Positions 8,108-60,590 are shown, counted from the first letter of the stretch. The stretch is 64,000 nt of DNA from an uncultured Kiritimatiellota bacterium (GCA_944389585.1 CALXMW010000001.1:7748-71747); one strand, 5' to 3'. Numbers and translations: made by a program. Notes: generated by a model not told the origin, from the sequence alone.

Positions 8108-8123
8108 GGGATTGAAGTATAAT
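8108..8123 (+). promoter_or_regulatory. candidate promoter of moxR (GGGATTGAAGTATAAT, -10 TATAAT 8118-8123)
   Basis: Consensus TATAAT about 27 nt before ATG 8150; variant of the recurring GGAwT..G.TAnnnT motif. Confidence 0.45.
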
Positions 8124-8149
8124 GGTGACGTTGAACGAAAGGACATGCC

Positions 8150-9136
8150 ATGGCTGAGAATGACGAGACGATTGCGCGGTGCGCGCCGTTGCTGGCGGCA
8201 ATCCGCGGCGAGGTGGGCAAGGCGTTGGTGGGGCAGGAGCGGATGATGGACGCGCTGCTCATCGCGTTGATGACGGGCGGGCATATCCTGCTGGAGGGCG
8301 TGCCGGGTTTGGCGAAGACGACGGCGGTGCGGGCGCTCGCGGCGGCGTTGGGGTTGGAAACCAGGCGGATTTCCTTCACGCCGGATCTGTTGCCGGCGGA
8401 CGTGGTGGGCAGCCTGGTCTACAACCAGAAGGAGGGAACGTTCACGCCGCACAAAGGGCCAGTCTTCGCGAACCTGCTCATCGCCGACGAGATCAACCGC
8501 GCGCCGGCAAAGGTGCAGTCGGCCCTCCTCGAGGCGATGCAGGAGCGCCAGGTGACGCTCGGCGACGAGAGTTACCCCTTGCCGCGCCCCTTCCTGGTGA
8601 TGGCCACGCAGAACCCCATCGAGCAGGAGGGCACCTATCCCTTGCCCGAGGCGCAGACCGACCGCTTCATGCTCAAGTGCGTGGTGCGCCATCCCGGCCG
8701 AGAGGACGAGCGGCGCATCATGAACCGCCTCACCCAGCCCGCGGCCCTGGCCGCCACGCCCAAACAATGCGTCTCGCGCGAGGACATCGACCTGCTGCTC
8801 TCCGCCGCCGAGAAGGTCTATTGCGACGCGAAGGTGGACGATTACATCCTTGACCTCGTCTTCGCCACGCGCGACCCCGCCGCCTTCAAGGGCCTGGAAG
8901 GCCTCAAAGACGCCATCCAGCTGGGCGTCTCGCCGCGCGGCTCCATCTGCCTGAAGCAGGCCGCCCGCGCCAACGCCCTCCTGCGCGGCCGCGCCTACGC
9001 CACCCCGCAGGACGTGAAAGAGACGGCCCACGACGTGCTGCGCCACCGCCTCCTGCTCACCTACGAGGCCGAGGCCGAGGCGCTCACCCCGGACGCCGTC
9101 ATCGACCGCCTCCTCGCCGAAATCCCCGTCCCGTGA
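8150..9136 (+). CDS. moxR: MoxR-family AAA+ ATPase
   Basis: 328 aa; Walker A GVPGLAKTT, Walker B LLIADEINRA, MoxR/RavA-like layout. Confidence 0.9.
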   Translation: MAENDETIARCAPLLAAIRGEVGKALVGQERMMDALLIALMTGGHILLEGVPGLAKTTAVRALAAALGLETRRISFTPDLLPADVVGSLVYNQKEGTFTPHKGPVFANLLIADEINRAPAKVQSALLEAMQERQVTLGDESYPLPRPFLVMATQNPIEQEGTYPLPEAQTDRFMLKCVVRHPGREDERRIMNRLTQPAALAATPKQCVSREDIDLLLSAAEKVYCDAKVDDYILDLVFATRDPAAFKGLEGLKDAIQLGVSPRGSICLKQAARANALLRGRAYATPQDVKETAHDVLRHRLLLTYEAEAEALTPDAVIDRLLAEIPVP

Positions 9137-9192
9137 CCGGCAGGCCGCCCCGGCCACCGGGCGGCACCGCTCCGCGCAAGACAAGGAGAGGC

Positions 9193-10077
9193 ATGGAAAT
9201 CGACACCGAAGAGCTGATGAAGGAGGTGGGGCGGATCCGCATCCTCACCAGGCGGCTGCTCGACGAGCGGCTGAGCGGCGACTACCACTCCGTCTTCAAA
9301 GGCCAGGGCATCGAGTTCGACGAAGCCCGCCCCTACCAGCCCGGCGACGACGTGCGCGCCATCGATTGGAACGTCACCGCGCGCATGGGCGAGCCCTACG
9401 TCAAACGCTTCAGCGAGGAACGCGAGCTCACCGTCCTCTTCCTCGTCGACGTCTCCGGCAGCCAAAGCTTCGGCTCCGCCGGCCGCTCCAAGGCCGCCCG
9501 CGCCGCCGAGCTCACCGCCCTCCTGGCCCTGGCCGCCCTCTCCAACCAAGACAAGGTCGGCCTCCTGCTCTTCTCCGACCGCGTGGTGAAAAGCCTCCCC
9601 CCGCGCAAAGGCCGCACCGCCGTCCAACGCCTCGTCCGCGAGGTCCTCGCCGCCGAGGAGACGCACGAGGGCACCGACATCCGCGCCGCGCTCCGCTTCG
9701 CCTCCGCCACCCAACGCCGCCGCGCCGTCGTCTTCCTCATCTCGGACTTCCAGGACGCGGGCTACGCACGCGAGCTCGCCGCCTTCGCCCGCCGCCACGA
9801 CGTCATCGCCTGCCGTCTCTCCGACCCCGCCGAGGCCGCGCTCCCCAACGTCGGCCTCGTGGCGCTCTGGGATCCCGAGACGCACCGCACCCACCTCGTG
9901 GACACCGCCAGCGCCGCCGTCCGCCGCGCCTACGCCCAAAGCGCCGCCGCGCGCCGCGCCGAGCAGGAACGCGCCTTCGCCCGCGCCGGCGTCGACCTCC
10001 TTGACCTTTCCACCGACAAGCCTTACGTCGACGCCGTGCGCGGCCTCTTCCGCCGCCGCGCCGCACGCCGCCGTTGA
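9193..10077 (+). CDS. DUF58-family protein (MoxR-associated, vWA-like)
   Basis: 294 aa; ATG 9193 with RBS aaggagagg; DUF58-like segments (DVRAIDWNVTAR, LVDVSGS); the usual partner of MoxR. Confidence 0.8.
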   Translation: MEIDTEELMKEVGRIRILTRRLLDERLSGDYHSVFKGQGIEFDEARPYQPGDDVRAIDWNVTARMGEPYVKRFSEERELTVLFLVDVSGSQSFGSAGRSKAARAAELTALLALAALSNQDKVGLLLFSDRVVKSLPPRKGRTAVQRLVREVLAAEETHEGTDIRAALRFASATQRRRAVVFLISDFQDAGYARELAAFARRHDVIACRLSDPAEAALPNVGLVALWDPETHRTHLVDTASAAVRRAYAQSAAARRAEQERAFARAGVDLLDLSTDKPYVDAVRGLFRRRAARRR

Positions 10078-10088
10078 AAGGAGCCCCC

Positions 10089-59178: not shown

Positions 59179-59186
59179 CCGCCCCC

Positions 59187-60452
59187 TCAGGCCATGGCCT
59201 CGGCGAGCGCGCGGCCGAACTCGGAGCACTTCACCTCGCGCGCGCCTTCCATGAGGCGGGCGAAGTCATACGTCACCACCTTCGCGGCGATGACCTTGTC
59301 CATCGCGGCGATGATTTTGTCGGCGGCCTCCGTCCAGCCCATGTAGCGCAGCATCATCTCGCCCGAGAGGATGAGCGAGCCGGGGTTCACCTTGTCCATC
59401 CCGGCGTATTTCGGGGCCGTGCCGTGGGTGGCCTCGAAGACGGCCGCGCCGGTGGCGTAGTTGATGTTCGCCCCGGGCGCGATGCCGATGCCGCCGACGC
59501 AGGCGGCCAGCGCGTCGGAGACGTAGTCGCCGTTCAGGTTCAGCGTCGCGATGACGTCATATTCCGCCGGGCGCGTCAAAATCTGCTGCAGGAAGGCGTC
59601 GCAGATGCAGTCCTTGACGACGATCTCGCGGCCGGTCTTGGGGTTCTTGAAGCTGCGCCACGGCCCTTCGCCGATCTTCTGCGCGCCGTACTCGCGCTCG
59701 GCCAGCGCGTAGCCCCAGTCGCGGAAGGCGCCCTCGGTGAACTTCTGGATGTTGCCTTTGTGGACCAGCGTGACGGACTTGCGGTCGTTGGCGATGGCGT
59801 AGTCGATGGCCGCCTTGATGAGGCGCTCGCTCCCTTCGCTGGAGACCGGCTTGACGCCGATGGAGCTGGTCTCCGGGAAGCGGATTTTCGTGACGCCCAT
59901 CTCCTTGGTCAGGAAGTCGATGACCTTCCGCGCCTCGGGCGTGCCGCTCATCCATTCGATGCCCGCGTAGATGTCCTCCGTGTTCTCGCGGAAGATGACC
60001 ATGTCCGTCAGCTCCGGGCGCAGCACCGGCGAGGGCACCCCCTTGAACCAGCGCACCGGGCGCAGGCAGACGTAGAGATCCAGCAGCTGGCGCATCGCCA
60101 CGTTGATCGAGCGGATGCCCCCGCCCACCGGCGTCGTCAGCGGCCCTTTGATGGAGACCAGGCAGTCGCGGCACGCCTCGATCGTCTCCTCCGGCAGCCA
60201 GGTGTTCGGGCCGTAGACCGCGTTGGCCTTCTCGCCGGCGTAGACCTCCATCCAGGCGATCTTGCGGCTGTCGCCGTAAGCGGCCTTGACCGCCGCGTCC
60301 CACACCACCATCGCCGCGGCCGTGATGTCCGGCCCCGTCCCATCCCCCTCCACGAACGGGATAATCGGGCGATCCGGCACCCGCAGGCGCCCATCCGCGC
60401 CCATCGTGATCTTCTCGCCGAACGCCGGTTCCACAATCTTCTGGTAAGCCAT
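59187..60452 (-). CDS. icd: NADP-dependent isocitrate dehydrogenase
   Basis: 421 aa from MAYQKI (RBS gaggaag); IDH blocks [21 protein letters not shown]. Confidence 0.95.
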
Positions 60453-60484
60453 AGCCAAACTTCCTCTCAAAAAACGAAACACTT

Positions 60485-60500
60485 CATTATAGCACATCCC
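60485..60500 (-). promoter_or_regulatory. candidate promoter of icd (minus strand GGGATGTGCTATAATG; TGnTATAAT)
   Basis: Textbook extended -10 about 35 nt upstream of icd ATG 60452. Confidence 0.5.
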
Positions 60501-60574
60501 GGCCCCCTCCGCCCATCCCGCCGCCGGGCGGCCCCCGGGGCGGGGCGCGGCCGTGCGGGGTTTGATTGGGGGGC

Positions 60575-60590
60575 GGGGATTTGGTAGACT
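60575..60590 (+). promoter_or_regulatory. candidate promoter of gspF (GGGGATTTGGTAGACT)
   Basis: The -10 TAGACT ends 9 nt before ATG 60600, so gspF looks leaderless; the GTG at 60591 cannot be the start. Confidence 0.4.

Follow-up and report, generated by a model that had tools for sequence, protein, structure and literature searches.

A recurring, putative extended -10 promoter motif with candidate leaderless genes and false gene starts in an uncultured Kiritimatiellota bacterium

Promoters of Campylobacter and Helicobacter possess an extended -10 element or a -16 region together with a weak or absent -35 element, and they belong to AT-rich genomes with periodic T-rich upstream signals. In the extended -10 element, sigma domain 3 recognizes the bases T-17R-16T-15G-14, and the "perfect" consensus that is independent of a -35 element has been described as TGTGcTATAAT (PMC6212719). 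Among M. tuberculosis promoters, 1.8% carry the TGTG and approximately 10% a TG (PMC6212719). Further upstream, the Z-element has been described as a 5-bp block of the spacer that is separated from the -10 by 4 bp (PMC3173786). With respect to translation, leaderless genomes are recognized by a -10 box that lies 6-8 nt away from the gene start (PMC6028130), and in the PVC relative Akkermansia, 10% of the mapped start sites are leaderless (PMC4782308).

Here we describe a recurring motif in a window of 64,000 nucleotides, the whole stretch of DNA that was analyzed, which derives from an uncultured Kiritimatiellota gut bacterium with 70% GC. The promoter class to which we assign the motif is known and no new kind of mechanism is revealed; the phylum is unstudied. 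The icd, ispH, hrpB and accD sites contain the literal TGTGCTA core of the extended -10 class.

The motif in the window and in related loci

A first-pass annotation of the window had listed 15 sites with the consensus G(G/A)A(A/T)T(G/T)(T/G)GnTAnnnT. All 15 exist, at most 3 nt away from where they had been placed, and two further sites were found, one ahead of ybeY (52720-52733) and one degenerate variant (45670-45683). While the motif is real, its literal consensus is too narrow and is matched exactly by only four sites, since a G is frequent at position 3 (GGGAT). When the 15 sites and the one at 52720 are aligned on the -10 hexamer, TAnnnT is present in 16/16, and one CATACT variant comes in addition. 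K-16, T-17 and G-20 are each found in all 16 sites, A or T at -18 in 15, G-14 (two bases 5' of the hexamer) in 15 and T-15 in 13, the exceptions from the TG at -15/-14 being the moxR, ftsB and hydrogenase sites. At position -16, 11 sites have G and five have T, hence K and not R, and TKTG is complete in 13/16. The resulting layout is a G-rich GGRW block followed by T-17 K-16 T-15 G-14 n T-12 A-11 nnn T-7, or in short form GGRWT-KTG-n-TAnnnT.

The relaxed pattern GNNTKTGNTANNNT has 13 matches in the window, as compared to 0.25 expected, and none of 100 dinucleotide shuffles reached this number, the maximum being 2. All 13 matches are intergenic, a compartment that makes up about 7% of the window, and each faces the adjoining gene. 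The bare TGnTAnnnT is matched 17 times, and the four of these matches that lie within coding DNA are devoid of the upstream G..TK part. Motif discovery, which the annotation had proposed as a check, gave the same picture: our own EM, started from unbiased seeds on the intergenic regions, converges on GGGGGGATGTGGTATAAT with a log-likelihood ratio of 134 (74-93 in three shuffled sets) and recovers 16/16 sites with a posterior of 1.0, and no second, competing promoter motif was found in these regions. The recurrence of the motif is thereby confirmed as real and far above chance.

The motif is also found in relatives. In nine related loci, TGnTAnnnT occurs within 90 nt upstream of 32/60 unit-first genes, with 3-5 expected as estimated from base composition, and the 30 sites that have enough upstream sequence show T-17 in 24 and K-16 in 25 cases. 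A position-weight scan yielded 20 matches in Kiritimatiellae loci (about 6 expected) versus about 10 in other phyla (15 expected). G-20, which is invariant in the window, drops in relatives to 9/15 and 12/30 sites, and therefore the upstream block may in part be a species-level habit or an effect of G-rich composition and not an element that is recognized.

Placement at transcription-unit starts

All five divergent intergenic regions have one copy of the motif on each strand, so that every strand switch in the 64 kb is marked, and six co-directional unit starts are marked as well. The motif is located 6-49 nt before a start codon, or 14 nt before a tRNA. The genes served are of the housekeeping type, such as tRNAs, secG-rpoZ-smpB, accD, icd, ispH and ftsB. 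Pfam confirms MoxR, AccD, LeuA, FeFe hydrogenase, IspH, HrpB and TatD, and weakly DivIC/FtsB; the 1034-aa "AsmA-like" protein has no Pfam match.

About one site in three (13 of the 38 aligned from the window and relatives) has a -35 TTG, exactly at -36/-35 and essentially nowhere else upstream, with a spacing to the -10 of 17-18 nt that lies within the 16-18 nt of group 1 sigma-70 promoters. A classical -35/-10 scan finds only the moxR and ftsB sites and misses the rest. These two are without TG, and as expected for a compensation, their TATAAT is perfect and their -35 matches are the best. The moxR promoter (8110-8123, plus strand; GATTGAAGTATAAT, positions -20 to -7) has this consensus TATAAT 26 nt before ATG 8150, which is preceded by a Shine-Dalgarno sequence AAAGGA. 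In the ftsB/divIC promoter (14616-14629, plus strand; GAATGCGTTATAAT) the TG is displaced, and a strong -35 TTGAAA is found at 14600. The strand-switch placement, the register of the -35 TTG and the compensation between TG and -35 together support the view, already taken in the annotation, that the sites are extended -10 promoters at the 5' ends of transcription units.

On the minus strand, the tRNA-Arg/tRNA-Met operon promoter (11517-11530; GGATTTGCTACTTT) has a -35 TTGCGC at 11540-11545 with two A-tracts upstream, and the mature tRNA 5' end follows at 11502, 14 nt past the -10. The internal promoter of the hydrogenase operon (21025-21038, minus; GGATTGGGTATACT), with a -35 TTGCGG, lies 49 nt before ATG 20975 of a thioredoxin-like 2Fe-2S protein. 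Further minus-strand sites precede the 1034-aa gene (33544-33557; GATTGTGGTACAAT; ATG 33526, 17 nt past the -10, Shine-Dalgarno AAAGGAG) and the secG-rpoZ-smpB-tatA operon (44459-44472; GGATTTGGTATTCT; -35 TTGACG, ATG 44426, 32 nt past the -10), and the icd promoter (60486-60499; GGATGTGCTATAAT) is a textbook TGTGcTATAAT, 33 nt before ATG 60452. On the plus strand, the motif precedes accD (11832-11845; GAATGTGCTAAACT; ATG 11882, 36 nt past the -10, Shine-Dalgarno AAGGAG), the tatD operon (33668-33681; GAATGTGATAAAAT; ATG 33708, 26 nt), a 701-aa gene (40816-40829; GACTGTGCTAAACT; ATG 40850, 20 nt) and ybeY (GTTTGTGCTATCCT; ATG 52753, 19 nt). The degenerate plus-strand variant (CAATGGGGCATACT), recovered by EM with a posterior of 0.92, is found ahead of a 152-aa secreted-protein gene (ATG 45718) and has a -35 TTGCAA at 17-nt spacing.

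False gene starts and candidate leaderless genes

Through the motif variants AATG, GATG and TATG, positions -18 to -14 come to contain an ATG or GTG, and therefore ORF finders let ispH, ftsB, hrpB and icd begin too early, within the promoter. For ispH, the annotation had ascribed the N-terminal MCYHG of the ORF track to an ATG within the motif, and this is confirmed: in the promoter (21966-21979, minus strand; GAATGTGCTATCAT), the ORF-track start is the ATG of GGA-ATG-TG at 21977, the true ATG is 21926, 39 nt past the -10, and position 1 of the LYTB profile falls on residue 3. The effect reaches other genes too. For ftsB, with its true ATG at 14651, the in-motif ATG 14618 creates the spurious extension MRYNKGQQERV; for hrpB, the in-motif GTG 22013 creates VLSCGA, and the public HrpB gene calls already begin within the promoter with a spurious extension. 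For icd, the in-motif ATG 60497 shares the frame of the gene and would yield an extension of 15 residues.

The annotation had placed the -10 of the metallophosphoesterase (MPE) gene, hrpB, gspF and the leu uORF 6-10 nt before the ATG, and this is correct, with distances of 6, 8, 9 and 10 nt, respectively. The leaderless reading that was built on them is supported for gspF and hrpB by orthologue N-termini and kept spacing, and for MPE by the ATG 44518 that recurs in three assemblies; for the leu uORF it is plausible and unproven. The promoter of the gspF-gspG-PRK-lpxC operon (60577-60590, plus strand; GGATTTGGTAGACT; -35 TTGATT) is followed after 9 nt by ATG 60600. T.TG.TAnnnT, the 9 nt and the ATG are kept in 6/6 genomes, i.e. 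the window and five orthologues of 65-87% identity and 46-69% GC, and in all six the seventh nucleotide past the -10 is a purine between pyrimidines. In the window this is G 60597, the predicted transcription start, which would leave a 3-nt leader. The GspF orthologues have 412-415 aa and the N-terminus MA(N/S/T)F, and their alignments fix the start. The hrpB promoter (22009-22022, plus strand; GGATGTGCTATCTT) is separated by 8 nt from ATG 22031, which points to a leaderless mRNA or a leader of at most 2 nt. The corresponding distance is 6-8 nt in 5/5 cases (the window, L069, L070 via a GTG, L071 and L072), and the HrpB N-terminus M[AG]LDLT is conserved across about 40 orthologues. For both genes the spacing is constant while the surrounding intergenic DNA and the GC content diverge.

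The MPE promoter (44498-44511, plus strand; GCTTGTGGTAAGAT) ends 6 nt before ATG 44518. In the window the frame is interrupted, and three other assemblies contain an intact ORF of 361 aa from this ATG. A start 7 nt past the -10 would be the A of this ATG. With that canonical start position, MPE alone is predicted to be strictly leaderless, and hrpB, gspF and the uORF would have leaders of 2, 3 and 4 nt. In all four cases the space is too short for a Shine-Dalgarno sequence, and leadered genes with Shine-Dalgarno sequences coexist with these candidates in the window. The mRNAs of MPE, hrpB and gspF, and probably that of the leu uORF, would thus start at the AUG or 2-4 nt before it.

An unbiased screen for TAnnnT followed after 5-9 nt by an ATG that opens an ORF of at least 80 aa found TG at -15/-14 in 15/40 matches from Kiritimatiellae versus 4/161 in control phyla, and the matches include canonical SMC and IspH N-termini. 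The ATG offset past the -10 peaks at 5-8 nt in Kiritimatiellae only. The choice of six loci via gspF and of three via hrpB inflates the leaderless fraction in relatives; with these genes set aside, the leaderless share among the other genes is about 12%. In the literature that we searched, leaderless genes have not previously been reported for Kiritimatiellota.

The leuA leader promoter (15812-15825, plus strand; GGTTTTGGTATCGT), with a -35 TTGCGC, is followed 10 nt past the -10 by ATG 15836 of the leu uORF (15836-15925, plus strand; MKRKDFALGLRLSLLPLLGGGSRRAWRAE), of whose 29 codons seven encode Leu, including LSLLPLL. Next come a GC-rich hairpin and TTCTTTTT, ahead of leuA (16038). The leader matches no Rfam family, and its fold has a z-score of -0.85. 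The uORF and the hairpin are a candidate leader-peptide attenuator, as yet unproven.

Proposed recognition, alternative readings and known systems

Very probably, the motif represents the promoters of the primary sigma factor (sigma-70 family, group 1) of this bacterium, with a full-length extended -10. As to the protein contacts, we infer that sigma domain 2 reads the -10 hexamer T-12 A-11 nnn T-7 and sigma domain 3 the full-length extended -10, T-17 K-16 T-15 G-14, and that a downstream module of this strength renders the -35 element optional. The G-rich block ending in A/T-T (G-22 S-21 G-20 R-19 W-18 T-17) would occupy the spacer segment that is contacted by the beta-prime zipper in other bacteria, and a gain in affinity or easier opening is its probable effect; the assignments to sigma domain 3 and to the zipper are carried over from E. 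coli, Thermus and Mycobacterium. Transcription would start about 7 nt past the -10, and because the promoters are only 6-49 nt away from the start codons, the 5' UTRs would be very short. A sizeable minority of units, namely MPE, hrpB, gspF and probably the leuA uORF, would then be translated without a Shine-Dalgarno sequence.

The strictness of the upstream half of the motif invites other readings. G-20 and T-17 (16/16) are more invariant than the usual spacer positions of known sigma-70 promoters, and G-20 is weaker in relatives, as might be seen with a lineage-specific factor; the GGRWT-KTG block could accordingly be bound by a global regulator, as its operator, or by an RNAP-associated factor (CarD-/RbpA-like), and overlap an ordinary -10 promoter instead of being a target of the polymerase. 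This is very improbable, since the register between block and hexamer is fixed to the base pair at all sites and in all genomes, the block is asymmetric and has no dyad, and sigma domain 3 already accounts for T-17 and T-15 G-14 (PMC6212719). Its presence at essentially every promoter, including those of tRNA and core metabolic genes, argues for a basal element. That the motif instead defines the regulon of an alternative sigma factor (group 2-4) might be suspected from a consensus that is longer and stricter than a typical sigma-70 logo and from the many sites that escape the classical scan. We think that this is hardly credible for a motif that serves unrelated housekeeping genes and every strand switch, that shows the group 1 features TAnnnT, TG at -15/-14 and a -35 TTG at 17-18 nt, and that has no competitor in the intergenic regions.

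For the leaderless candidates, it is the crude gene caller, which let hrpB and gspF start at a TTG or GTG further downstream, and the broken MPE frame that could speak for a coincidental short spacing at hrpB, gspF, MPE and the uORF, with the true starts downstream or the promoters further upstream and the mRNAs leadered. Such a coincidence is very improbable: the orthologue N-termini align to these very ATGs, the spacing persists (gspF 9 nt in 6/6, hrpB 6-8 nt in 5/5) against diverging flanking DNA and GC content, there is no room for a Shine-Dalgarno sequence, MPE is intact from ATG 44518 in the three assemblies, and short offsets are in statistical excess in this clade only.

The motif can serve as a promoter model for a gut-associated phylum that is uncultured, and it aids the definition of operons and the design of expression parts. 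Conceptually, a PVC lineage is added for which the full-length extended -10 is the norm and not an exception. The motif can moreover correct gene starts, as the public HrpB calls are wrong and IspH, FtsB and Icd are at equal risk, and gene finding in Kiritimatiellota genomes calls for a leaderless "group C"-type model. We also consider, as a rather doubtful extension, that basal recognition in Kiritimatiellia has shifted almost wholly to an elongated downstream module (a Z-like G-rich block at -22 to -18 plus the TKTG extended -10), with the -35/sigma-4 contact as an optional booster. If true, a PVC phylum would combine frequent leaderless translation with a natural, genome-wide instance of the "-10/Z" class, which to date has been put forward only on the basis of in vitro work.

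Among known systems, the extended -10 TRTG class (the "-16 region" of Firmicutes and the mycobacterial sinP3, TGTGcTATAAT) shares with the present sites TAnnnT, the TG one base upstream, T-17 and the optional -35. In contrast to M. tuberculosis, the extended -10 is near-universal here (T-17 16/16, TKTG 13/16); position -16 is G or T and not the purine of the TRTG consensus, and conservation runs on upstream to -20/-22. The upstream block is G-rich and stands in a 70% GC genome, unlike the situation in Campylobacter and Helicobacter. The Z-element of the -10/Z class (Yuzenkova et al. 2011, PMC3173786) has the same position, a 5-bp block exactly 4 bp upstream of the -10, and next to a strong -10 it is proposed to take the place of the -35 (PMC3173786). 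Of its sequence only the W-T 3' end is shared, with GGAAT/GGGAT here versus the published AACCT, AACAT, AATGT and AAATT, so that the 5' half is G-rich here and AA there. The published consensus is also loose, with single-base effects below 2-fold, whereas G-20 and T-17 are invariant here; as the Z-element position is so strongly conserved, its sequence requirements become testable on natural promoters. The leaderless candidates resemble the GeneMarkS-2 "group C" genomes (Actinobacteria, Deinococcus-Thermus) and Akkermansia muciniphila in having a -10 6-9 nt before the unit-first start codon, no Shine-Dalgarno sequence, and leadered Shine-Dalgarno genes in the same genome. They differ from leaderless genomes in that several would have 2-4 nt leaders, and from mycobacterial leaderless promoters, which are mostly a bare TANNNT, in that they carry the extended -10.

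Probable extended -10 promoters in the window

The 15 sites that the first-pass annotation had assigned to the 5' ends of transcription units are all present where it had placed them, and a 16th site, absent from its list, lies at 52720. When these 16 sites are anchored on their -10 hexamer and counted relative to the predicted transcription start, TAnnnT at -12 to -7, G or T at -16, T at -17 and G at -20 are found in 16/16 sites, G at -14 and A or T at -18 in 15 of the 16, and T at -15 in 13, while most sites have G or C, with G predominating, at -21 to -24. The motif, GGRWT-KTG-n-TAnnnT, holds, but the literal consensus first given for it, G(G/A)A(A/T)T(G/T)(T/G)GnTAnnnT, was too tight and is matched exactly in 4 sites only, because GGGAT is as frequent as GGAAT. 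A relaxed form, GNNTKTGNTANNNT, has 13 matches in the window (GC content 70%) versus 0.25 expected, a number reached in 0/100 dinucleotide shuffles, and 13/13 of them fall into the intergenic DNA that makes up ~7% of the window. Bare TGnTAnnnT occurs 17 times, and the four coding occurrences do not possess the upstream G..TK part, so that G-20 and T-17 are informative by themselves. Also an EM model limited to no more than one site per strand, for which each fourth 18-mer across all intergenic regions of the window served as a seed, yielded the consensus GGGGGGATGTGGTATAAT and recovered 16/16 sites at posterior 1.0, with a log-likelihood ratio of 134 for the real intergenic regions versus 74-93 for three shuffled sets; a multi-site EM with a loose prior was unusable, as it collapsed to a composition model with equal likelihood from all seeds. 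The one-site model adds a degenerate 17th site at 45670-45683, CAATGGGGCATACT preceded at 17 nt by TTGCAA. Two tandem copies of the direct repeat TTTGGCTTGCAAT (45645-45676) overlap with the -35 region of this promoter, which lies before the gene of a 152-aa secreted protein.

The gene layout was taken from a codon-usage gene map, public gene calls and Pfam. Of the gene names proposed earlier, MoxR, AccD, LeuA, the FeFe hydrogenase with its 2Fe-2S partner, IspH, HrpB and TatD agree with Pfam, and DivIC/FtsB does so weakly. The label "AsmA-like" was not retained for the 1034-aa protein (30422-33526, - strand), which has its own promoter and no Pfam match at E ≤ 0.001. The gene of the 701-aa protein (40850-42955, + strand) likewise has its own promoter, and the public gene calls record no Pfam match for it. 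Every site is oriented toward the adjacent gene, and the distance from the end of the hexamer is 6-49 nt to the start codon and, at the tRNA operon, 14 nt to the mature tRNA-Arg. One site per strand is found in 5/5 divergent intergenic regions of the window (tRNA/accD, ispH/hrpB, 1034-aa/tatD, icd/gspF, and secG with the metallophosphoesterase gene, MPE). The sites that remain mark internal starts of units, those of moxR, ftsB, ybeY, the leuA leader, the hydrogenase operon and the genes of the 701-aa and 152-aa proteins. Served by the sites are housekeeping genes, such as tRNAs, secG-rpoZ-smpB-tatA, accD, icd and ispH. An origin of the motif from a repeat or mobile element was also considered and dropped, as the shared stretch comprises only ~14-18 bp, the flanks are unrelated and the orientation always follows the gene.

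A classical TTGACA-17-TATAAT scan of the window yields only 2 sites, ftsB and moxR (0.8 expected), and standard scanning would therefore miss this promoter class. These are exactly the two sites without TG, and both compensate for it by a TATAAT without mismatch and by the -35 regions closest to the consensus. Upstream TTG clusters only at -36/-35 (13/38 aligned sites of the window and its relatives), which is the canonical -35 element at 17-18 nt spacing. Directly upstream of a good -35 TTG, A-tracts of the GCAAAAAAG type occur at the tRNA promoter (11550-11566, - strand) and the ftsB promoter (14589-14597), and also at tRNA or strong promoters of relatives (loci L011 about 11700, L063 about 9140 and L065 about 19100); they resemble UP elements, placed at the strongest promoters. 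On the upstream side of the moxR promoter lies an array (7958-8056) of the palindrome CCTTATAAGG, with three exact copies at 7985, 8008 and 8031 in a period of exactly 23 bp and a degenerate fourth copy, CCCCATAAGGG, ~23 bp further upstream (window count 4 versus 0.16 expected), which resembles an array of operators bound by a dimeric regulator, or else a small repeat element. Back-to-back divergent promoters are found at 21966-22022, at 44459-44511 and in the relative L070 (about 9930-10000), with 42-46 bp between the -10 hexamers, so that the -35 region of each promoter falls in the upstream block of its partner. Two polymerases would probably not occupy both promoters simultaneously, and the arrangement suggests competition between the paired units.

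Conservation in related genomes

An identical Icd protein is encoded on 23 gut-metagenome contigs, and the closest IspH loci (59-82% identity) belong to species genomes (MAGs) labelled Kiritimatiellaeota, Kiritimatiellae or Ca. Spyradenecus, which places the uncultured source organism in Kiritimatiellota, a PVC phylum. A position-weight scan gave 20 matches in Kiritimatiellae loci, where ~6 are expected, and ~10 in loci of other phyla, where ~15 are expected. Nine more related loci, with a GC content of 46-69%, were scanned with unit-first genes taken from public gene calls, and TGnTAnnnT lies within 90 nt upstream of 32/60 such genes, compared with an estimated 3-5 expected from composition. 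Thirty of these sites have sufficient sequence on their upstream side; of these, 24 possess T-17, 25 K-16, 21 G-22 and 12 G-20, and among the 18 from high-GC relatives G-22 is found in 16 and G-20 in 11. These counts make the TKTGnTAnnnT core and the upstream G-rich block features of the clade, and strict G-20 appears to be more species-specific than the core. Footprinting of the ispH promoter is not informative, as ispH is mostly operon-internal in relatives; L021 is the sole relative with its own ispH promoter, and ispH is predicted to be leaderless there. When orthologues of the other promoter-proximal genes were sought by tblastn in the collected loci, the sole finds were ispH and ybeY, and synteny around them was not conserved.

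Candidate leaderless genes and false starts

The first-pass annotation had regarded four reading frames as leaderless, with 6-10 nt between the -10 hexamer and the ATG, and the measured distances agree: 6 nt for MPE, 8 nt for hrpB, 9 nt for gspF and 10 nt for the leu uORF, a reading frame ahead of leuA. For gspF, 120 orthologues have a length of 412-415 aa, and in each of five orthologous loci (65-87% identity), in which the upstream neighbour differs, T.TG.TAnnnT is followed after exactly 9 nt by ATG-GCG/TCG. The 7th nucleotide after the -10 is a purine between pyrimidines in 6/6 loci (cGt in five, cAt in one), which agrees with the most frequent start distance and with the Y-R-Y motif at start sites reported in a promoter survey. 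The predicted transcription start would be G 60597, with a leader of 3 nt. About 40 HrpB orthologues start with M[AG]LDLT, as does the window's ATG at 22031, and the -10 lies 7, 6 and 8 nt before the start codon in L069, L071 and L072, respectively. In L070 it lies 6 nt ahead of a GTG from which the protein would begin with the consensus MALDLT. About 5 kb from hrpB, this relative also carries a type II CRISPR-Cas locus (252-5195) with a 1234-aa Cas9-like protein (RuvC_III and HNH domains), Cas1 and Cas2.

MPE is called as a single 361-aa ORF from ATG 44518 in three other assemblies. These have 7 G where the window has a 9-G run (44743-44752), which splits the gene into 81 + 293 aa. L060 shares this frame-breaking 2-nt expansion, and ONAT22-1_SAMEA6814483 scaffold_3 has the same sequence as the window across the gene; the cause may be an assembly error in the homopolymer, a genuine pseudogene or phase variation by slippage.

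A screen of the ispH-anchored loci that was independent of gspF, hrpB and MPE searched for TAnnnT followed after 5-9 nt by an ATG that begins an ORF of at least 80 aa. Of the matches, 15/40 from Kiritimatiellae versus 4/161 from other phyla possess TG at -15/-14, T-17 accompanied it in 14 of these 15, and an ATG offset peak 5-8 nt after the -10 occurs in this clade only. The matches include textbook N-termini, for example of SMC (MYLKALEIQGFK) and IspH (MKILVAEPHGMC). Orthologue N-termini, conserved spacing and the clade-only excess support the view that gspF, hrpB and MPE are leaderless or nearly so.

In the region 15836-16037, the leu uORF comprises 29 codons, 7 of them Leu, and is followed, ahead of leuA, by a hairpin, GGCCTCCGC...GCGGGGGCC, and then a U-run, TTCTTTTT. 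The region gave no Rfam match and no significant fold, and the Rfam search of the window returned two tRNAs only, with neither a leu leader nor a riboswitch nor another RNA family. A leader-peptide attenuator, the uORF of which would itself be nearly leaderless, is a reasonable guess for this region.

The motif can contain start codons of its own. The false ispH start, MCYHG..., does originate from such an ATG (21977), as had been suggested: the IspH Pfam profile sets in at the third residue of the short protein, the start Met of which is shared by relatives. Spurious extensions likewise arise at ftsB (ATG 14618, MRYNKGQQERV), icd (ATG 60497, in frame, MCYNE...) and hrpB (GTG 22013, VLSCGA). 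The public HrpB clusters P0121, P0123 and P0125 (the last with 127 member sequences) open with MVSLGA-MGLDL, and in the DNA of P0125 (L072 1480-1525) the called ATG is A-16 T-15 G-14 of the promoter GGATTTTATGGTATCTT. MVSLGA in the public calls of sister strains is accordingly a spurious addition.

Relation to known promoters and leaderless systems

The occurrence of the motif in the window is confirmed, and its interpretation as a promoter that in several cases serves leaderless genes is supported by sequence and by comparison among genomes; protein contacts and exact 5' ends are inferred. The full-length extended -10 element is T-17R-16T-15G-14; sigma domain 3 reads it, and promoters that have it can do without the -35. 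Its "perfect" consensus is TGTGcTATAAT, and in M. tuberculosis TGTG occurs in only 1.8% of promoters (PMC6212719). The promoter survey reports TRTG as common in Firmicutes. The beta-prime zipper contacts a spacer block, the Z-element (AACCT, AACAT, AATGT, AAATT), which can take the place of the -35 when the -10 is strong (PMC3173786). The window's GGRWT has the same location, exactly 4 bp upstream of the hexamer, but shares only the 3' W-T with the published sequences, and the resemblance is therefore one of position and not of membership.

With respect to translation, the GeneMarkS-2 "group C" genomes are recognized by a -10 box at a distance of 6-8 nt from the gene start (PMC6028130), and in Akkermansia, a PVC relative, 10% of start sites are leaderless (PMC4782308). 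The promoter survey, of 49 species, names Chlamydiota as the only PVC phylum in the passages considered, and its text mentions neither Verrucomicrobia nor Planctomycetes nor Kiritimatiellota; searches of the library on Kiritimatiellota promoters, start sites and leaderless genes found nothing specific. Annotation can profit from these observations, and their interest for promoter biology is modest. The system is not of a new kind: both the promoter class and the mode of translation are known, but the literature searched describes neither for this phylum, and what stands out as lineage-specific is the near-universal use of the full extended -10 and the conserved G-rich block at the Z-element position.
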